Position numbers and translations under genes: made by a program
IMG/VR virus record: IMGVR_UViG_3300020185_000011
Origin: a virus
DNA: 64,000 nucleotides
Reading direction: 5' to 3' (one strand)
In this document: one piece after another, positions 15,363 through 51,764 of the stretch
How positions within the stretch are numbered: the first letter of the stretch is position 1
Layout of the letters: each line of letters opens with the position of its first letter
Notes under the pieces: generated by a model
The model's input: only the letters and a program-made list of their open reading frames with translations
Databases searched by the model: none
Told to the model about the DNA's origin: nothing

Positions 15363-15791
15363 ATGACACATTTCAATGATGTCTTCGGAAAATTCACAAC
15401 AGAATTTCCATTCGCAATCGGGTTCGACAGAACTCTTCAACTATTAGAACGTGCAGATGTACAATCTAATTCTAACTATCCACCTTACAATATTGTAAAA
15501 GTAGATGAGGAAAACTTCCAAATTGAACTTGCAGTTGCTGGATTCAATAAGAAAGAAATTTCAATCTCAAAAGAGAAAGAAGTTCTTATCGTTATGGGTA
15601 ATCAGAAAGACCAAGGAAATGCAAGGGAGTTCGTCCATCAAGGACTTTCTTCTAGAAATTTCACTAGAAAGTTTACACTAGCAGACGACATTGTCGTTAA
15701 AGGTGCAGACATGAAGGATGGTATTCTAAGCGTATCACTTGAGAGAGTAATACCCGAAGAAGATAAACCTCAAGAAATCAAAATTTCATAA
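15363..15791 (+). CDS. hsp20: small heat-shock protein Hsp20 (IbpA-like)
   Basis: NYPPYNIVK, IELAVAGF, F.R.F.LAD, DGILSV. Confidence 0.95.
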   Translation: MTHFNDVFGKFTTEFPFAIGFDRTLQLLERADVQSNSNYPPYNIVKVDEENFQIELAVAGFNKKEISISKEKEVLIVMGNQKDQGNAREFVHQGLSSRNFTRKFTLADDIVVKGADMKDGILSVSLERVIPEEDKPQEIKIS

Positions 15792-15862: not shown

Positions 15863-16390
15863 ATGACAGAAGAAGTAACAATGGGGTTAGAAATTATTGA
15901 AGGGGAAACTAGAGTACCCGAAGTAATCCTACCACAGAGAGTCGGTGGTGAATTTGTAACACTAGACACCCAACAACAGTTTGCTGGTAAAAGAGTGATT
16001 GTATTTGGATTGCCTGGCGCATTTACACCAACATGTTCAACTCAACAACTGCCTGGCTTTGATGAGAACTTTGAGAAGTTCCAAGAGAAAGGTATTGATG
16101 AGATTTACTGTGTATCAGTTAACGATACATTCGTAATGAACTCATGGTTCGAATCATTAGGTATCAAAAATGTTTACCCTCTTCCCGATGGTAACGGTGA
16201 GTTCACTCACTTAATTGGTGCAGAATGTTCTAAATCAAATCTTGGTTTCGGATACAGGTCTTGGAGATATGCAGCTGTAGTTAACGATGGAGTAATTGAA
16301 AAAATCTTTATCGAAGACGGTTACACTGATAATGCTGAGTCCGACCCTTACGAGGTTTCAACACCCGAAAATGTATTAGAAAATCTTTAA
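15863..16390 (+). CDS. peroxiredoxin (Prx5/redoxin family)
   Basis: LPGAFTPTCS, CVSVNDTFVM, PDGNGEFT, RSWRYA. Confidence 0.93.
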   Translation: MTEEVTMGLEIIEGETRVPEVILPQRVGGEFVTLDTQQQFAGKRVIVFGLPGAFTPTCSTQQLPGFDENFEKFQEKGIDEIYCVSVNDTFVMNSWFESLGIKNVYPLPDGNGEFTHLIGAECSKSNLGFGYRSWRYAAVVNDGVIEKIFIEDGYTDNAESDPYEVSTPENVLENL

Positions 16391-16398
16391 GAAACACC

Positions 16399-16428
16399 TT
16401 GACAGCGTTGTGCTAAATATAGTATAAT
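16399..16428 (+). promoter_or_regulatory. sigma70-type promoter of the methyltransferase-TET operon
   Basis: TTGACA 16399-16404, 18 nt, TATAAT 16423-16428, ATG 16435. Confidence 0.8.
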
Positions 16429-16434
16429 GGAGTC

Positions 16435-17712
16435 ATGATGAGTGATAATAAATATTTTCAATACAACCTAGAAGACCTTCACCGAAACAGTGAAAGTAAA
16501 CAGTTTAACTACATTACTTTCTTTGCTGGTGGTGGGGGTTCTTCATGTGGTTACAAACTAGCTGGTGGTGATGTAAAATACATGAATGAATTTCAACAGA
16601 TTCATGTCGACACCTACCTAGAAAATTTCCCTAATACAGTTCATGAATGTAGAGACATCAAAGAAGTCACTGCAGAAGGAATCATGGAGCTGACTGGACT
16701 TAAAAAATACGAATTAGATATCATGGATGGGTCACCACCTTGTCCACCATTTTCTATGGCAGGTTCCAAGAAAGAAGGATGGAACCAAGAGAAGATGGCA
16801 TATGGTATGAAACAACAGAACATCGAAGACCTTACATGGGAAATGATTAGGATTGCCGAAGGGTTGATGCCTAAAGTTATAGTATGTGAGAACGTGAAGG
16901 GTCTCTCGATGGACTATGCAAGAGACCATCTAAACAAGATGGTAAATGATTTTGAAGCACTAGGATACTCAGTGACTTGGAAAATCATGAAGGGACATGA
17001 ACATGGTGTTCCACAAAAAAGAGAAAGAGTATTCATGGTTGGTGTACGTGATGATGTACTTGAAGGTATTGGAATGCCTTGGATGTGTATGTCTTCAGTC
17101 TTCCCCGACCCAGTTAAAGAATTTGCATCCATTGAAGATGCAATTCAAGATTTAGAAACCGATGAAGAGAACATCAAGGATGCAGCTTATCTAGAAACTG
17201 CAATGAACGAATCTTCAAAGGGACATTGGGTAAATGGTTTCGAACAACATCCCGATGAGAAGTTCAAGGATTGTGGCCCATGTGGTGGAGTTACTCCTGT
17301 ACTACATGAGAGAGACAATCAAGCATATGTTTCTATTGGAGACCATATTGTTAAACCTTGGTTTCAAGAACAGATTAAGAACGGACACGTACAACCCGAA
17401 GATGAAAAACATTCTTACTACATGTCAAGAATTGTTCCTAAACATCTACCAGCTCACTCATTGACTGAACAGGGTTGTCAACCAAAATTTATGGGTGGTA
17501 ATCATTTCCACCATGGTGGTAAGAGAATCTACACACCAAAAGAAATGGTGAGATTAATGACTCTACCAAATGATTATAAAATGACTGGTGATTACAACGA
17601 CAAGGGTGCAAGAATTGGATTGATGGTAGCACCACTATGTATGTACTACTTAGTTGAAAACATCAAAGGACAAATATTAGAACCATGGAATTCACTGCAA
17701 CAAAAGACTTAG
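16435..17712 (+). CDS. C5 DNA cytosine methyltransferase
   Basis: Motif I FFAGGGG, IV GSPPCPPFS, VI ENV, VIII PQKRERVF. Confidence 0.93.
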   Translation: MMSDNKYFQYNLEDLHRNSESKQFNYITFFAGGGGSSCGYKLAGGDVKYMNEFQQIHVDTYLENFPNTVHECRDIKEVTAEGIMELTGLKKYELDIMDGSPPCPPFSMAGSKKEGWNQEKMAYGMKQQNIEDLTWEMIRIAEGLMPKVIVCENVKGLSMDYARDHLNKMVNDFEALGYSVTWKIMKGHEHGVPQKRERVFMVGVRDDVLEGIGMPWMCMSSVFPDPVKEFASIEDAIQDLETDEENIKDAAYLETAMNESSKGHWVNGFEQHPDEKFKDCGPCGGVTPVLHERDNQAYVSIGDHIVKPWFQEQIKNGHVQPEDEKHSYYMSRIVPKHLPAHSLTEQGCQPKFMGGNHFHHGGKRIYTPKEMVRLMTLPNDYKMTGDYNDKGARIGLMVAPLCMYYLVENIKGQILEPWNSLQQKT

Positions 17713-18686
17713 GATTTAAAGAAACATTTAAGAAATGGAACGGTAAGTATCTTACTGAAGATTCTTATGACACTGTTATCTCATCCATTGGTGTAGAAGA
17801 TGATACTATTAAAATATACAAACCTCATGGTACACTCATGGGGGAAACTTTACTTGCATGTATAGTAAAGAAAGCATACAAAGGTAAAACTTATAGAACA
17901 GTTAAAGACACTTTGTTCTCTATAGATGATACATCTACAATGAGAGCAAATGCAGCCGGGCCTATCGACCACGAAGAAATGAAAGCAAAAGGATTAATCG
18001 AAGGTAAAGACTATGTCCTAAGAACTCCAAACAGTTATTATCCATTAAAGAAGAACGGTGAGTTCAATCGTATTGCAGAAGCAAATGAGATTCATTCAGT
18101 TCTAATCGGGTATAAACGTGGCAGATTCACAGGAATGATTAAGGCAAGTGGTTGGATGGATAAGAAAGCAAACAAAGAAAAGTTTGAAACCCTTCAACAG
18201 ATTGCACAAGTAAATGAACAAGCATTAAAGACTGCAGTTCCCGAGATATGGAAGATGCAAAGAACATTTGCAGATGAATGTATAGAAGAGAAATACCATA
18301 TTGGTGGAGCTCCTATGACAGCGTTATCTGCAAACAAATATTCAACTGGTGGGACTGCAAAGATGTCTGCACATTTGGATGGTAAAGATTTAGAGTTCGG
18401 AATGACAACTATGTGTGTCTTCCGTATTGGAGAATTTGGGGGTGCATACTTATGTTTCCCTAGATATGGTATTGCTATTGAAGCAGATGATGGAGACGTA
18501 CTGATTGCAGATTCAAATGAATTGCACGGTGTATCACCTATCACTGGTGAAGGAGTAAGGTTATCATGTGTTGCATATTGTGATGAACATGTTGCAACTA
18601 AAGGGAGAGCTGGAAAGACTGAGAATCCTATCGGCCCTCATGCTGGAAAGTATGAGGAGAAAGGTTCACTTGACAGCTTTTTCTAG
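17685..18686 (+). CDS. TET/JBP-family 5-methylpyrimidine dioxygenase
   Basis: HLD (HxD), GGAYLCFPRYGIAI, ELHGVSPI, RLSCVAY; overlaps the C5-MTase by 28 nt. Confidence 0.85.
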   Translation: MEFTATKDLGFKETFKKWNGKYLTEDSYDTVISSIGVEDDTIKIYKPHGTLMGETLLACIVKKAYKGKTYRTVKDTLFSIDDTSTMRANAAGPIDHEEMKAKGLIEGKDYVLRTPNSYYPLKKNGEFNRIAEANEIHSVLIGYKRGRFTGMIKASGWMDKKANKEKFETLQQIAQVNEQALKTAVPEIWKMQRTFADECIEEKYHIGGAPMTALSANKYSTGGTAKMSAHLDGKDLEFGMTTMCVFRIGEFGGAYLCFPRYGIAIEADDGDVLIADSNELHGVSPITGEGVRLSCVAYCDEHVATKGRAGKTENPIGPHAGKYEEKGSLDSFF

Positions 18687-18769
18687 ACCTAAATAATAAT
18701 GTATCAACTGGAACGTTTCCTTTTGGACATCAAACGTCAAATCATATCCCCGTGGGATAAGGAGTAAAA

Positions 18770-19906
18770 ATGACAACACAACAACACCTGTCCGCAGGTT
18801 TAAAAAAGAGCTACGATATAGAACTCACCCGAGAACTATGTCCACCCAAAGAAACTTATCAAACTTGTAAATTCAAGAAAAGACTTGTAGTACACAAGGA
18901 TAAGATTTACATCATTGACCCTATTACAGGCGACCCATTGCAACCGAGAGAAGAAATCAATCTCACTCAAAATGTTATTGAGATTAAAACTTCATTCAAG
19001 TACAGAGGTTGGTTACATTCAGAAGAACCATTATTTGTACAAGTCGCTGCTGATGGAAACTTCATTCTAAGAAGTGGATTCAACAGATTCAAAGCTGCAA
19101 CGGAAAGTGGTTGGGAATATCTATTAGTAGATGTGTATGAAGATGCACCAGTCCAAAAGGACAACATTGCATTTAAGTATGTTTGTAACAATACTAACCT
19201 ACCATCTAAACCTAATAAAGATATTGACTTCATTAGAGGTGTAGTAGAAGCGATTGATGCAAATGCAATCAATCAAGAAGTCGAAGAAGAGATAATCTCA
19301 TTCTTAAAACAAATCACATCAACAGATGATGGTATGCGTTTAAAGACAGATGAAGAGATTGTCAATTATGTCGATGTAACAGAAGTAAATGACGATGGTT
19401 CAGAGAGTACTACTCAAGAACTATCAACTTCATGTTTACTATATAAGGTCTACAGACAGAGAGGAAAGAACAGAAACATTCTACCGTTAGATGGTAAATA
19501 TGCAAACGAAATTCTTAACAAACTTGGAAAGGGATGGGCTGGAGCAAGAAACAAAGATGTAACTGAGTTAGGTTATTGTTTTGAGAAAGGGAATAGTCTA
19601 CACAGAATATTGTGGGATGGTTTAAAACTTTATGGTAAGTATCAATCACCAATCATGTTATATGGATATGTTGAGAACCCATCATCAATGACTTTAAAGT
19701 CTGATAGAGCAGAAACATTTGCAAGATACGAGTGGTTCATAGAAGAATGTGTAAGAAGATTTACGGATTCTCTTGACTATCATAAGATGGGACTTAACTT
19801 CATGGAACTTGAATGGAAGTTCAGAGAAATCTTTCAGTGGGGTGGATTCATACCTCAAGATAAAACACCACATTGTGATGAAACTGGAAGGATAATACAA
19901 CTATGA
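18770..19906 (+). CDS. ParB/Srx-like N-terminal domain protein
   Basis: LQPR...SFKYRGW...LRSGFNRFKAA resembles the ParB GxxR motif; AAGGAG RBS. Confidence 0.55.
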   Translation: MTTQQHLSAGLKKSYDIELTRELCPPKETYQTCKFKKRLVVHKDKIYIIDPITGDPLQPREEINLTQNVIEIKTSFKYRGWLHSEEPLFVQVAADGNFILRSGFNRFKAATESGWEYLLVDVYEDAPVQKDNIAFKYVCNNTNLPSKPNKDIDFIRGVVEAIDANAINQEVEEEIISFLKQITSTDDGMRLKTDEEIVNYVDVTEVNDDGSESTTQELSTSCLLYKVYRQRGKNRNILPLDGKYANEILNKLGKGWAGARNKDVTELGYCFEKGNSLHRILWDGLKLYGKYQSPIMLYGYVENPSSMTLKSDRAETFARYEWFIEECVRRFTDSLDYHKMGLNFMELEWKFREIFQWGGFIPQDKTPHCDETGRIIQL

Positions 19907-20439
19907 TTATCATGGTTGGTGGAGTTCCATGTTCGGGAAAGTCAACTCTCATGAGAAGACTTATCTCTAGGTTAGATGAACCCAACCTAATTGAACCGAT
20001 GAAACTATTTAAGTGCCAAGAACATGGTGACGTATTAGTAGTCGGTCAATATCCCGAGGGAGAGACATTCGGTGGAACTGATAAGCTCTCTCACGGTTCT
20101 ATACCACAATTTAGAGAATTCATTGAGTGGGCAAACATTGCATATAAACATGTATTAATCGAAGGTGATAGATACTTTCGAGGTAAGGATATAGAATGGT
20201 TAATAGACAATCACGAAGCACGCGTTTACGTACTAACAGTAGAGTTATCGGAAGAACACAATCGTCACGCAGAACGTGGAGACACACAGTCCGAAGTGTG
20301 GTTGAAAGGGAGACGGAGTCAGATAAACAACATATTAACAAACATGAATCTACTAGGACAATTGCAGATTCGTGATAACAATTCTATAGAGACTTCTATG
20401 AAAATTGAGGAAGAAATATATGACAGAATTATTTCATAA
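19903..20439 (+). CDS. P-loop kinase, resembling phage hydroxymethylpyrimidine DNA kinases
   Basis: GGVPCSGKST, VGQYPEGETFGGTDKLS, IEGDR, R..RG..Q lid. Confidence 0.75.
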   Translation: MIIMVGGVPCSGKSTLMRRLISRLDEPNLIEPMKLFKCQEHGDVLVVGQYPEGETFGGTDKLSHGSIPQFREFIEWANIAYKHVLIEGDRYFRGKDIEWLIDNHEARVYVLTVELSEEHNRHAERGDTQSEVWLKGRRSQINNILTNMNLLGQLQIRDNNSIETSMKIEEEIYDRIIS

Positions 20440-20743
20440 AAAAGTCTACATGGTTGTAGAGAATCCCAATGAGGATGATGCAGCCATCGAACTAACAGGT
20501 GGAAAATGGGACGGACTTGTATACCAGTATGGCAAGATACAATTCGAAGAAGGTAAACCAAATATCAACTTCACAAGAACTATAAGAAGGTTTCCACATG
20601 GCCATGATGGCTGGAAGACAGAGATTGGACTTGAGGAACTCCTAAATAATAGTGAATTAAACGACCTCATGGGTGACATATTAATGGAACTTGTCGAGGA
20701 ACAAATGAAGAGGGAGAAAGAAGATGGCACTAGAGTATCATAA
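20420..20743 (+). CDS. conserved T4-like phage hypothetical protein
   Basis: AIELTGGKWDGLVYQYGKI...GDILMELVE. Confidence 0.65.
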   Translation: MTELFHKKVYMVVENPNEDDAAIELTGGKWDGLVYQYGKIQFEEGKPNINFTRTIRRFPHGHDGWKTEIGLEELLNNSELNDLMGDILMELVEEQMKREKEDGTRVS

Positions 20744-20904: not shown

Positions 20905-21360
20905 ATGAATAAAGAAGTATTGAAAGCACAAATTAAGCGTCATGAGGGCGAGGTACTTGAAGTATACGCAGACTCATTAGGATATCTAACACTTGGTGTT
21001 GGACATCTAATCAAAGAGGGTGATGCAGAACATGGACAACCAGCAGGAACTCCAGTATCACAATCAGTAGTAGATGCATACTACGAAGCAGATTTTGACA
21101 AACACGTGGATGAAACTATTCATTTGTTTGAATCAAAAGGTGGGAAGGATTTTTATTCTTTACCCGAAGATATTCAACACGTACTAGTCAATATGACATT
21201 CAACTTAGGTGGAAGTCGTTTTGGTAAGTTCAACAACATGTGGAAAGCAGTTGTATCAGAAGACTGGAAAAGAATGGCAGTTGAAATGGAAGACAGCCGT
21301 TGGTTCAGACAAGTCGGAAGACGTTCAGTTGAATTACAGGAGTCAGTACTAAATGTCTAA
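20905..21360 (+). CDS. lysozyme (GH24, T4 e-like endolysin)
   Basis: HEG..LEVYADSLGYLTLGVGHLI, NMTFNLG, F.NM, DSRWFRQVGRR. Confidence 0.9.
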   Translation: MNKEVLKAQIKRHEGEVLEVYADSLGYLTLGVGHLIKEGDAEHGQPAGTPVSQSVVDAYYEADFDKHVDETIHLFESKGGKDFYSLPEDIQHVLVNMTFNLGGSRFGKFNNMWKAVVSEDWKRMAVEMEDSRWFRQVGRRSVELQESVLNV

Positions 21361-51224: not shown

Positions 51225-51254
51225 TTGACAATGGCCCCTGTTTTAGGTTATACT
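51225..51254 (+). promoter_or_regulatory. sigma70-type early promoter (leaderless)
   Basis: GCC-TTGACA 51225-51230, TATACT 51249-51254, ATG 51261. Confidence 0.8.
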
Positions 51255-51260
51255 ATACGT

Positions 51261-51764
51261 ATGGAAAATAAAAGAGTAAAGAGAATCTTCATCGATATGG
51301 ATGGAGTACTAGCCGATTTCAACACTGGAGTTGAAACATTGACAGGGAGAGAGTTCCCTAACACCGACCAAGGTCATAACGATTATGACGAAAGGAAGGA
51401 AGAGTTAACGAACAAGAGATTGTTCAGAAACTTACCACCTATGCCTGATATGTATGATTTGGTTGGGTATGTAAGACACACTGGATTGCCTTGGGAAATC
51501 CTAACTGCAGCTGGTGTGATTAACAGAGAATTGGTCGTTTACGACAAGAATGAGTGGATTAGAGAACATGTCAGTCCAACAGTGGTAGTCACTTGTACTA
51601 TGACTGGTAGTCAAAAAGGTATGTTTGCAATCAAAGGGAGTGTCCTTATTGATGACAGACAAAAGAACCTTGATGCATGGGTAGAACATGGTGGAATAGG
51701 TATCCTTCACACGAGTGCAGAAGATACTATTGCACAGTTGAAAGAGTTAAGAAACGGTGAATAA
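51261..51764 (+). CDS. HAD-family 5'(3')-deoxyribonucleotidase
   Basis: IDMDGVLADF, ILTA, LIDDR..N..AW...GGIGILH. Confidence 0.9.
   Translation: MENKRVKRIFIDMDGVLADFNTGVETLTGREFPNTDQGHNDYDERKEELTNKRLFRNLPPMPDMYDLVGYVRHTGLPWEILTAAGVINRELVVYDKNEWIREHVSPTVVVTCTMTGSQKGMFAIKGSVLIDDRQKNLDAWVEHGGIGILHTSAEDTIAQLKELRNGE

Follow-up and report, generated by a model that had tools for sequence, protein, structure and literature searches.

A metavirome screen for DNA cytosine-C5 methyltransferases (C5-MTases) and TET dioxygenases has described a viral neighborhood in which genes for a heat-shock protein (HSP) and a redoxin are followed by the C5-MTase and TET genes and then by either a P-loop kinase or a glycosyltransferase (Burke et al., 2021, PNAS, PMC8256090). 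In E. coli, clade I methylases and clade A/B TETs make 5-methylcytosine (5mC) and then 5-hydroxymethylcytosine (5hmC), mainly at GpC, and TET88, whose source contig bears a kinase, matches TET43 in specificity (Burke et al., 2021, PMC8256090). In contigs 49, 76, and 88, the kinase was proposed to phosphorylate the TET-made 5hmC, with downstream hypothetical proteins modifying the product further (Burke et al., 2021, PMC8256090). In the current study, we analyzed a locus of this kind at positions 16,399 to 20,439 of a 64,000-nucleotide stretch (the window) of the IMG/VR virus record IMGVR_UViG_3300020185_000011. The window is part of a 145.9-kb record that is ~80% complete; Methylophilales phage Melnitz, a marine myophage of the T4-like group, is closest to it among cultured phages. 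The cassette is real, intact, and widespread, and loci of its kind had already been described in 2021. Our analysis suggests, with a probability that we put at about 0.58, that it belongs to a Melnitz-like marine myophage and serves post-replicative cytosine modification, its kinase making phosphorylated 5hmC. An initial annotation of the sequence had recognized four genes here (a C5-MTase, an overlapping TET/JBP-type dioxygenase, a ParB-like protein, and a kinase), all of which were recovered on the + strand, in the following layout.

16399..16428, + strand: sigma-70-type (early-type) promoter, TTGACA-18-TATAAT, 12/12 consensus matches
16435..17712, + strand: DNA cytosine-C5 methyltransferase, probably GpC-specific (PF00145, E = 2e-49)
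17685..18686, + strand: TET/JBP-family Fe(II)/2-oxoglutarate (2OG) dioxygenase, predicted to convert 5mC to 5hmC (PF12851, 50 bits)
18670..18697, + strand: another promoter-like site, ahead of the ParB-like gene, 11/12 matches
18770..19906, + strand: ParB/Srx-fold protein of 378 amino acids (aa), an optional accessory gene in a variable slot (structure comparison)
19903..20439, + strand: P-loop kinase of 178 aa, a predicted 5hmC DNA kinase (PF18751, 31.9 bits)

This gene order was found again in dozens of IMG/VR contigs and in cultured Melnitz, and is therefore not due to chance. For comparison, we assembled 80 IMG/VR loci whose TETs share 52-100% identity with that of the window and a further 33 found through the kinase; removal of duplicate contigs left 68 loci with sufficient readable downstream sequence. 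The methylase lies upstream of TET in 64 of the 68 and was untraced in the other four. Downstream, the cassette carries a kinase in 58 loci, glycosyltransferases instead in nine, and neither in one. The glycosyltransferases of these sister loci, whose TETs are 72-87% identical to the window TET, belong to the TET-associated family PF20691 and the T4 alpha-glucosyltransferase family PF11440 (TAGT/AGT), and some of the loci also contain an epimerase and a spermine-synthase-like gene. The initial annotation had remarked that the kinase takes the usual place of a glycosyltransferase, and it is indeed this position that the TAGT/AGT enzymes occupy in relatives. That the two replace each other so cleanly in a single position argues for 5hmC in DNA as the substrate of the kinase as well as of the glycosyltransferases. 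Contigs with the identical kinase sequence number 139, and there are 276 matching protein clusters, the best 120 of which are at least 53% identical. Two kinase paralogues in tandem downstream of TET, ~67% and 40% identical to the window kinase, were seen in four loci (L108, L111, L112, and L113); Salmonella phage ViI likewise has two 5-hydroxymethyldeoxyuridine (5-hmdU) kinases.

The two enzymes that would supply 5hmC keep their diagnostic residues. The C5-MTase scores 169 bits against PF00145 (cut-off, 22), with intact motif I (FFAGGGG, residues 29-35), catalytic PPC containing Cys103, and ENV (152-154). The TET/JBP protein, whose reading frame overlaps that of the MTase by 28 nt, scores 50 bits against PF12851 (cut-off, 34.9). 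The HxD...H...R signature first noticed in it corresponds to the iron ligands and the 2OG-binding arginine: H230-x-D232, H281, and R292 do not vary among five homologues, the most distant of which is 55% identical. A PDB sequence search with the TET family gave no match. By synteny with the published description, the locus has the neighborhood of the phage 5mC-dioxygenase clade A (Burke et al., 2021), with an overlapping C5-MTase, an HSP and a redoxin, and a kinase downstream. The proposal that the MTase and TET successively make 5mC and 5hmC is thus supported, since the locus fits Burke clade I/A, tested pairs of which do so at GpC. By analogy with the clade I enzymes, and from the footprint described below, the MTase is probably specific for GpC.

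A footprint consistent with such modification was found in the genome sequences. In this record, all 51 CCWGG sites have a 5′ G or a 3′ C, against an expectation of 17.8% (P = 6e-39). The same is true of the kinase-type genomes of Melnitz (68/68) and of a 146-kb relative, G003 (49/49), and of a glycosyltransferase-type relative, G005 (42/42). Across these four MTase-TET genomes, CCWGG therefore abuts GpC at 210 of 210 sites, where 14-25% would be expected (P = 1e-32 to 1e-42); in Pelagibacter phage HTVC008M, a genome without the methylase and TET, 24 of 136 sites are flanked in this way. The control words CCATGG, CCTAGG, and CCWWGG showed no flank enrichment in this record, and CCWWGG was flank-enriched in G005 (14/17, P = 8e-9). 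GATC is absent from the record (0 vs. 567 expected) and CCGG is nearly so (4 vs. 108 expected), with all four CCGG sites lying next to GpC, and each of the five GpC-containing 4-base palindromes occurs at or above expectation. These sequence patterns are most simply read as selection by a CCWGG-type nuclease against sites that lack protection, with a modified cytosine in the abutting GpC providing it; this reading supports the operation of the methylase and TET steps in vivo. Other words are also avoided in the record: GTGCAC occurs 0 times vs. 31 expected, despite containing GpC, and GACGTC 0 times vs. 12. HTVC008M has a flank enrichment of its own at CCGG (41/51). GATC counts also differ between genomes, with 332 in G005, none in this record or G003 (the two kinase-type metagenomic genomes), and 23 in Melnitz, a difference that may stem from different hosts or from what the two modifications protect.

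The family assignment of the kinase is weaker than the initial annotation had assumed. Its score of 31.9 bits against PF18751 (Ploopntkinase3; cut-off, 27) makes it a marginal member, core members scoring 198-238 bits, and many of its orthologues carry precomputed PF18751 labels. PF18748 (HMUDK_HMUD1) did not match the kinase at E up to 0.01, nor anything in the genome at E up to 1. A profile comparison with the P-loop families linked to base modification had been proposed at the outset; once run, it placed the kinase above the cut-off for PF18751 and not for PF18748. In contrast, the characterized 5-hmdU DNA kinases M6 gp54, ViI gp67, and SP10 gp186 all belong to PF18748 (65-386 bits) and none to PF18751. 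The earlier statement that kinases of this type phosphorylate 5-hydroxymethyluracil (5hmU) was thus too strong, since these three kinases are of one family and the window kinase of the other. PhiW-14 matched neither profile, and PhiW-14 gp37 and ViI gp243 were left unplaced. In an alignment of eight sequences spanning both families, Walker A, G48, G58, D60, E87, G88, and R121 are common to all, M6 gp54 and ViI gp67 included, as is the GQY..GETFGGTD loop that had been picked out in the window kinase; on this alignment, PF18751 and PF18748 are related families. A PDB sequence search with the kinase family returned matches at the level of the P-loop only.

In an alternative reading, the kinase would act on 5hmU rather than 5hmC, the TET also oxidizing thymine; the pathway would then modify thymidine, and the methylase would act separately. 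5hmU is the substrate of all tested base kinases, and both TET89 and the 5mYOX enzymes act on T as well as on 5mC. Moreover, the nearest cultured relatives of the kinase outside Melnitz lie in TET-bearing clusters of thymine type, which contain an amino acid:DNA transferase (AADT) and no C5-MTase: Gordonia phage Wooper has the order ParB-TET-AADT-kinase, and Caulobacter phage Cr30, the closest cultured kinase homologue after Melnitz, has TET, AADT, and kinase genes without a C5-MTase. However, thymine-type TETs have no adjacent C5-MTase and usually have an AADT, which was not found here, whereas the methylase precedes TET in nearly all of the loci compared and overlaps it in the window. The AGT-family 5hmC glucosyltransferases of sister loci and the GpC linkage of the footprint likewise speak for cytosine, and we consider a 5hmU substrate very improbable. 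Cr30 itself deserves a remark: its ~51.8-60 kb region encodes an AADT (gp123), a weak TET-associated glycosyltransferase-like protein (gp122), and a PF18751-like kinase (gp114) mislabeled "terminase small subunit," and is probably an unrecognized thymine hypermodification system in a cultured phage. The same name attaches to the window kinase through its phrog_800 label, which we rejected because a T4 gp16-type small terminase gene is present elsewhere in the genome. The proven 5-hmdU DNA kinase M6 gp54 (16686-17249) is also labeled "terminase small subunit" in RefSeq, and the name looks like a propagated misannotation in both M6 gp54 and phrog_800.

Returning to 5hmC as the substrate, the next question is whether the phosphate would be the last addition. 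The initial annotation had allowed for further substitution by a transferase encoded outside the window, and this was not supported: profile searches of whole genomes with AADT (PF18724) found none in the record itself, nor in five contigs related to it (61-146 kb), nor in the Melnitz genome, which is complete and circular, and the positive controls M6 gp51, Wooper gp3, and Cr30 gp123 were all matched. Phosphorylated 5hmC may therefore be the end product, or an enzyme of no recognized family may act on it. The second possibility would make phosphorylated 5hmC an activated intermediate only, the phosphate being replaced by an unrecognized enzyme, perhaps one of the variable proteins encoded between TET and kinase or one encoded in the ~20% of the genome that the record lacks. 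It recalls the thymine pathways, in which 5-phosphomethyldeoxyuridine (5-PmdU) is always an intermediate, and the slot between TET and kinase does hold diverse unannotated proteins, among them the 378-aa protein, Melnitz gene 06, and open reading frames (ORFs) of 189-458 aa. Against it, the slot is empty in several close relatives, the complete Melnitz genome yielded no AADT, and no kinase-specific partner gene emerged from gene content, a low-power comparison of three kinase-type genomes with one glycosyltransferase-type genome (71% complete) and HTVC008M that returned only a cell-wall hydrolase and small unannotated ORFs. A purely intermediate role is, in our judgment, distinctly unlikely.

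The slot protein of the window resembles ParB in fold rather than in sequence. The initial description of it as ParB-like holds at fold level for residues ~32-231 and fails by sequence profile, the match to ParB_N (PF02195) being below the cut-off (14.4 vs. 26.3 bits, E = 0.04). Its AlphaFold model (pLDDT 73) resembles the N-terminal domains of ParB proteins (Foldseek E = 3e-5, probability 1.0), with VIA Z-scores of 9.6 for pNOB8 ParB-N (156 residues, root-mean-square deviation 3.4), 9.4 for PadC, and 7.8 for sulfiredoxin, and it also matches KorB. An LxSGFNR motif is invariant in the family, in which S102-G103-F104-N105-R106 corresponds to the Gly-x-x-Arg box at the nucleotide site. The alpha/beta C-terminal domain had no informative structural match, and a PDB sequence search with the family gave none. 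Distribution of the gene is uneven. Relatives with 93-95% identical TETs lack both the gene and the 84-nt spacer upstream of it, their kinase gene beginning ~4 nt downstream of TET; versions 21-44% identical occur in other relatives, and the slot gene of Melnitz (gene 06, 427 aa) shows no similarity to the 378-aa protein. Comparison of the ParB-like family with the other slot proteins by hhalign gave no match, at a sensitivity so low that known actinophage ParB-like proteins were missed too. A recognizable ParB-like gene was present in 29 of 58 kinase-type loci and in none of nine glycosyltransferase-type loci, which is only suggestive of a tie to the kinase branch, as the loci are not independent. 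Judged by its distribution in these sequences, the gene is dispensable in close relatives and tracks the kinase rather than the oxidase, and its absence beside nearly identical TETs makes an obligatory activator role unlikely. The predicted complex of kinase and ParB-like protein scored 0.00, which counts neither for nor against an interaction.

Several observations weigh against phosphorylation of 5hmC. The kinase model (pLDDT 89) has a generic nucleoside monophosphate kinase fold that does not reveal the substrate, and a fold search returns generic nucleotide kinases (adenylate, guanylate, and nicotinamide-riboside kinases). Our literature search found no tested PF18751 enzyme, and membership of the window kinase in that family is itself marginal. 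The commercial 5-HMUDK is reported to phosphorylate only 5hmU and not 5hmC, so phosphorylation of 5hmC would be a new activity. The proteins that match PF18751 strongly come from actinophages, where they adjoin the large terminase, and in Mycobacterium phage Saguaro the PF18751 kinase follows ParB, a DpdA-annotated gene (without a Pfam match), QueC, QueD, QueE, and FolE, and nothing there points to a hydroxymethyl base, so the family is not bound to hydroxymethylpyrimidines. The CCWGG footprint is equally strong in the glycosyltransferase-type genome and is therefore silent on the kinase. Finally, as the record is ~80% complete, a downstream enzyme could be missing from it, although the complete Melnitz genome lacks an AADT too.

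Much of this evidence would also fit a kinase that leaves the modified base untouched, serving as a nucleotide kinase or as a helper of the ParB-like protein or of packaging, in which case the product would be 5hmC, or a mixture of 5mC and 5hmC, at GpC. The fold matches, the placing of actinophage PF18751 genes beside large terminase and ParB-like genes (including in deazaguanine clusters, with nothing to phosphorylate), the presence of the kinase in 29 of 29 loci with a ParB-like gene, and the failure to find a downstream transferase are all in keeping with such a role. Nevertheless, exchange with 5hmC glycosyltransferases at the same position would be unexpected for a housekeeping nucleotide kinase, the G-x-Y...G-x-D loop is shared with the DNA-base kinases, and half of the kinase loci have no recognizable ParB-like gene. 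We regard this explanation as unlikely.

We therefore favor a pathway in which the C5-MTase would first methylate GpC cytosines, as homology, context, and the genome footprint suggest. TET would then oxidize 5mC to 5hmC, a step for which homology to tested clade A enzymes and the 5hmC glycosyltransferases of sister loci argue. Lastly, the PF18751 kinase is predicted to use ATP to phosphorylate the hydroxymethyl group, so that the DNA would contain 5-(phosphoryloxymethyl)cytosine; from sequence comparison, this step is plausible, with somewhat better than even odds. The phosphorylated base would be either the final virion modification or the substrate of an enzyme of no recognized family, the ParB-like protein may be an optional helper tied to the kinase branch, and the modification would shield GpC-overlapping sites such as GCCWGG from host restriction. 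We also put forward, tentatively, a fuller version that we consider doubtful as a whole: the enzyme would be a DNA kinase truly specific for 5hmC, a globally abundant group of marine myophages would carry 5-(phosphoryloxymethyl)cytosine at GpC as their completed virion base, and the ParB-like protein would assist the kinase step and not the oxidase. To our knowledge, no DNA carries a phosphorylated base as its final modification rather than as an intermediate. The initial annotation had presented phosphorylation of 5hmC as a route not known to be characterized on cytosine. It is still uncharacterized as far as the literature that we searched goes, in which no later paper testing the kinase on 5hmC turned up, but the idea is not new; as Burke et al. 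(2021) had proposed it, it is the standing hypothesis for this type of locus.

The cassette is flanked by genes that recur with it in relatives or close it downstream, as follows.

15363..15791, + strand: Hsp20 gene (PF00011, E = 5e-19), a conserved upstream neighbor and not a pathway enzyme
15863..16390, + strand: redoxin/AhpC-type peroxiredoxin gene (PF08534, E = 2.5e-27), which precedes the MTase in relatives too
20405..20743, + strand: acidic 112-aa protein (orf112, phrog_3998), probably not pathway-specific
20905-21360, + strand: lysozyme gene (profile match)

The orf112 and lysozyme genes close kinase-type and glycosyltransferase-type cassettes alike, and orf112, which lies ahead of the lysozyme gene in both, was accordingly rejected as a pathway enzyme. 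Expression of the cassette is probably early. The early promoter that had been placed ahead of the C5-MTase proved to be a perfect sigma-70 consensus, and of 67 related loci, 24 have similar boxes ahead of the MTase. The ATG of the MTase is 6 nt downstream of the -10 box of this promoter (16428-16437), which leaves no space for a ribosome-binding site, so that the MTase mRNA may be leaderless. Elsewhere in the window, a 5′-deoxynucleotidase (NT5C) homologue (51225-51764) and a second 2OG-Fe(II) oxygenase (PF13640; 51907-52539) were noted.

If the favored pathway is correct, a 5hmC DNA kinase would be a new activity, the known base kinase acting on 5hmU only, and could serve as a tool for tagging 5hmC; phosphorylated 5hmC would likewise be a new natural DNA base. 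Whatever the identity of the base that the cassette makes, it is common in the sea, judging from the 139 contigs with the exact kinase. The footprint at CCWGG provides sequence-level evidence of GpC modification in vivo and of selection for it as protection from restriction. The cassette also lies unrecognized in Melnitz, an OM43-clade phage that is in culture, so that its virion DNA offers a direct test of the 2021 hypothesis.

Among described systems, the thymidine hypermodification pathways (Lee et al., 2018, 2021; PMC5889632, PMC8989533) resemble this locus in having a small P-loop kinase beside base-modifying genes and in the activation of a 5-hydroxymethyl group by phosphorylation, and the kinases share Walker A, the G-Y...G-D loop, the EG pair, and the arginine. 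They differ in that their kinase belongs to PF18748 rather than PF18751, in the AADT that was not found here, and in their substrate, which is 5hmU incorporated at replication, whereas the predicted substrate here is 5hmC made post-replicatively by the MTase and TET. The ParB-dependent T-dioxygenases of 5mYOX clade C1 (O'Toole et al., 2026, PNAS, PMC13229309) also have a TET/JBP gene beside a ParB-like gene and a P-loop kinase, and the ParB-like protein here keeps the N-terminal nucleotide-binding fold, as in those loci. In clade C1, however, the substrate is thymine, ParB activates the oxidase, and there is no adjacent C5-MTase, in contrast to the methylase upstream in 64 of 68 loci here. Melnitz (MZ577095) shares the order MTase-TET-slot-kinase, protein identities of 53-55%, and the CCWGG footprint; its description (Buchholz et al., 2022, PMC9004378) labels only a "type II DNA methylase" and leaves the TET and kinase unmentioned. 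The clade I/A clusters of Burke et al. (2021) have, as here, an HSP, a redoxin, a C5-MTase overlapping TET, a kinase or a glycosyltransferase, and ParB and lysozyme genes nearby. That study assayed MTases, TETs, and glycosyltransferases and not the kinase; relative to it, the present analysis adds the absence of an AADT from a complete genome, the counts of the exchange between kinase and glycosyltransferase, and the CCWGG footprint.

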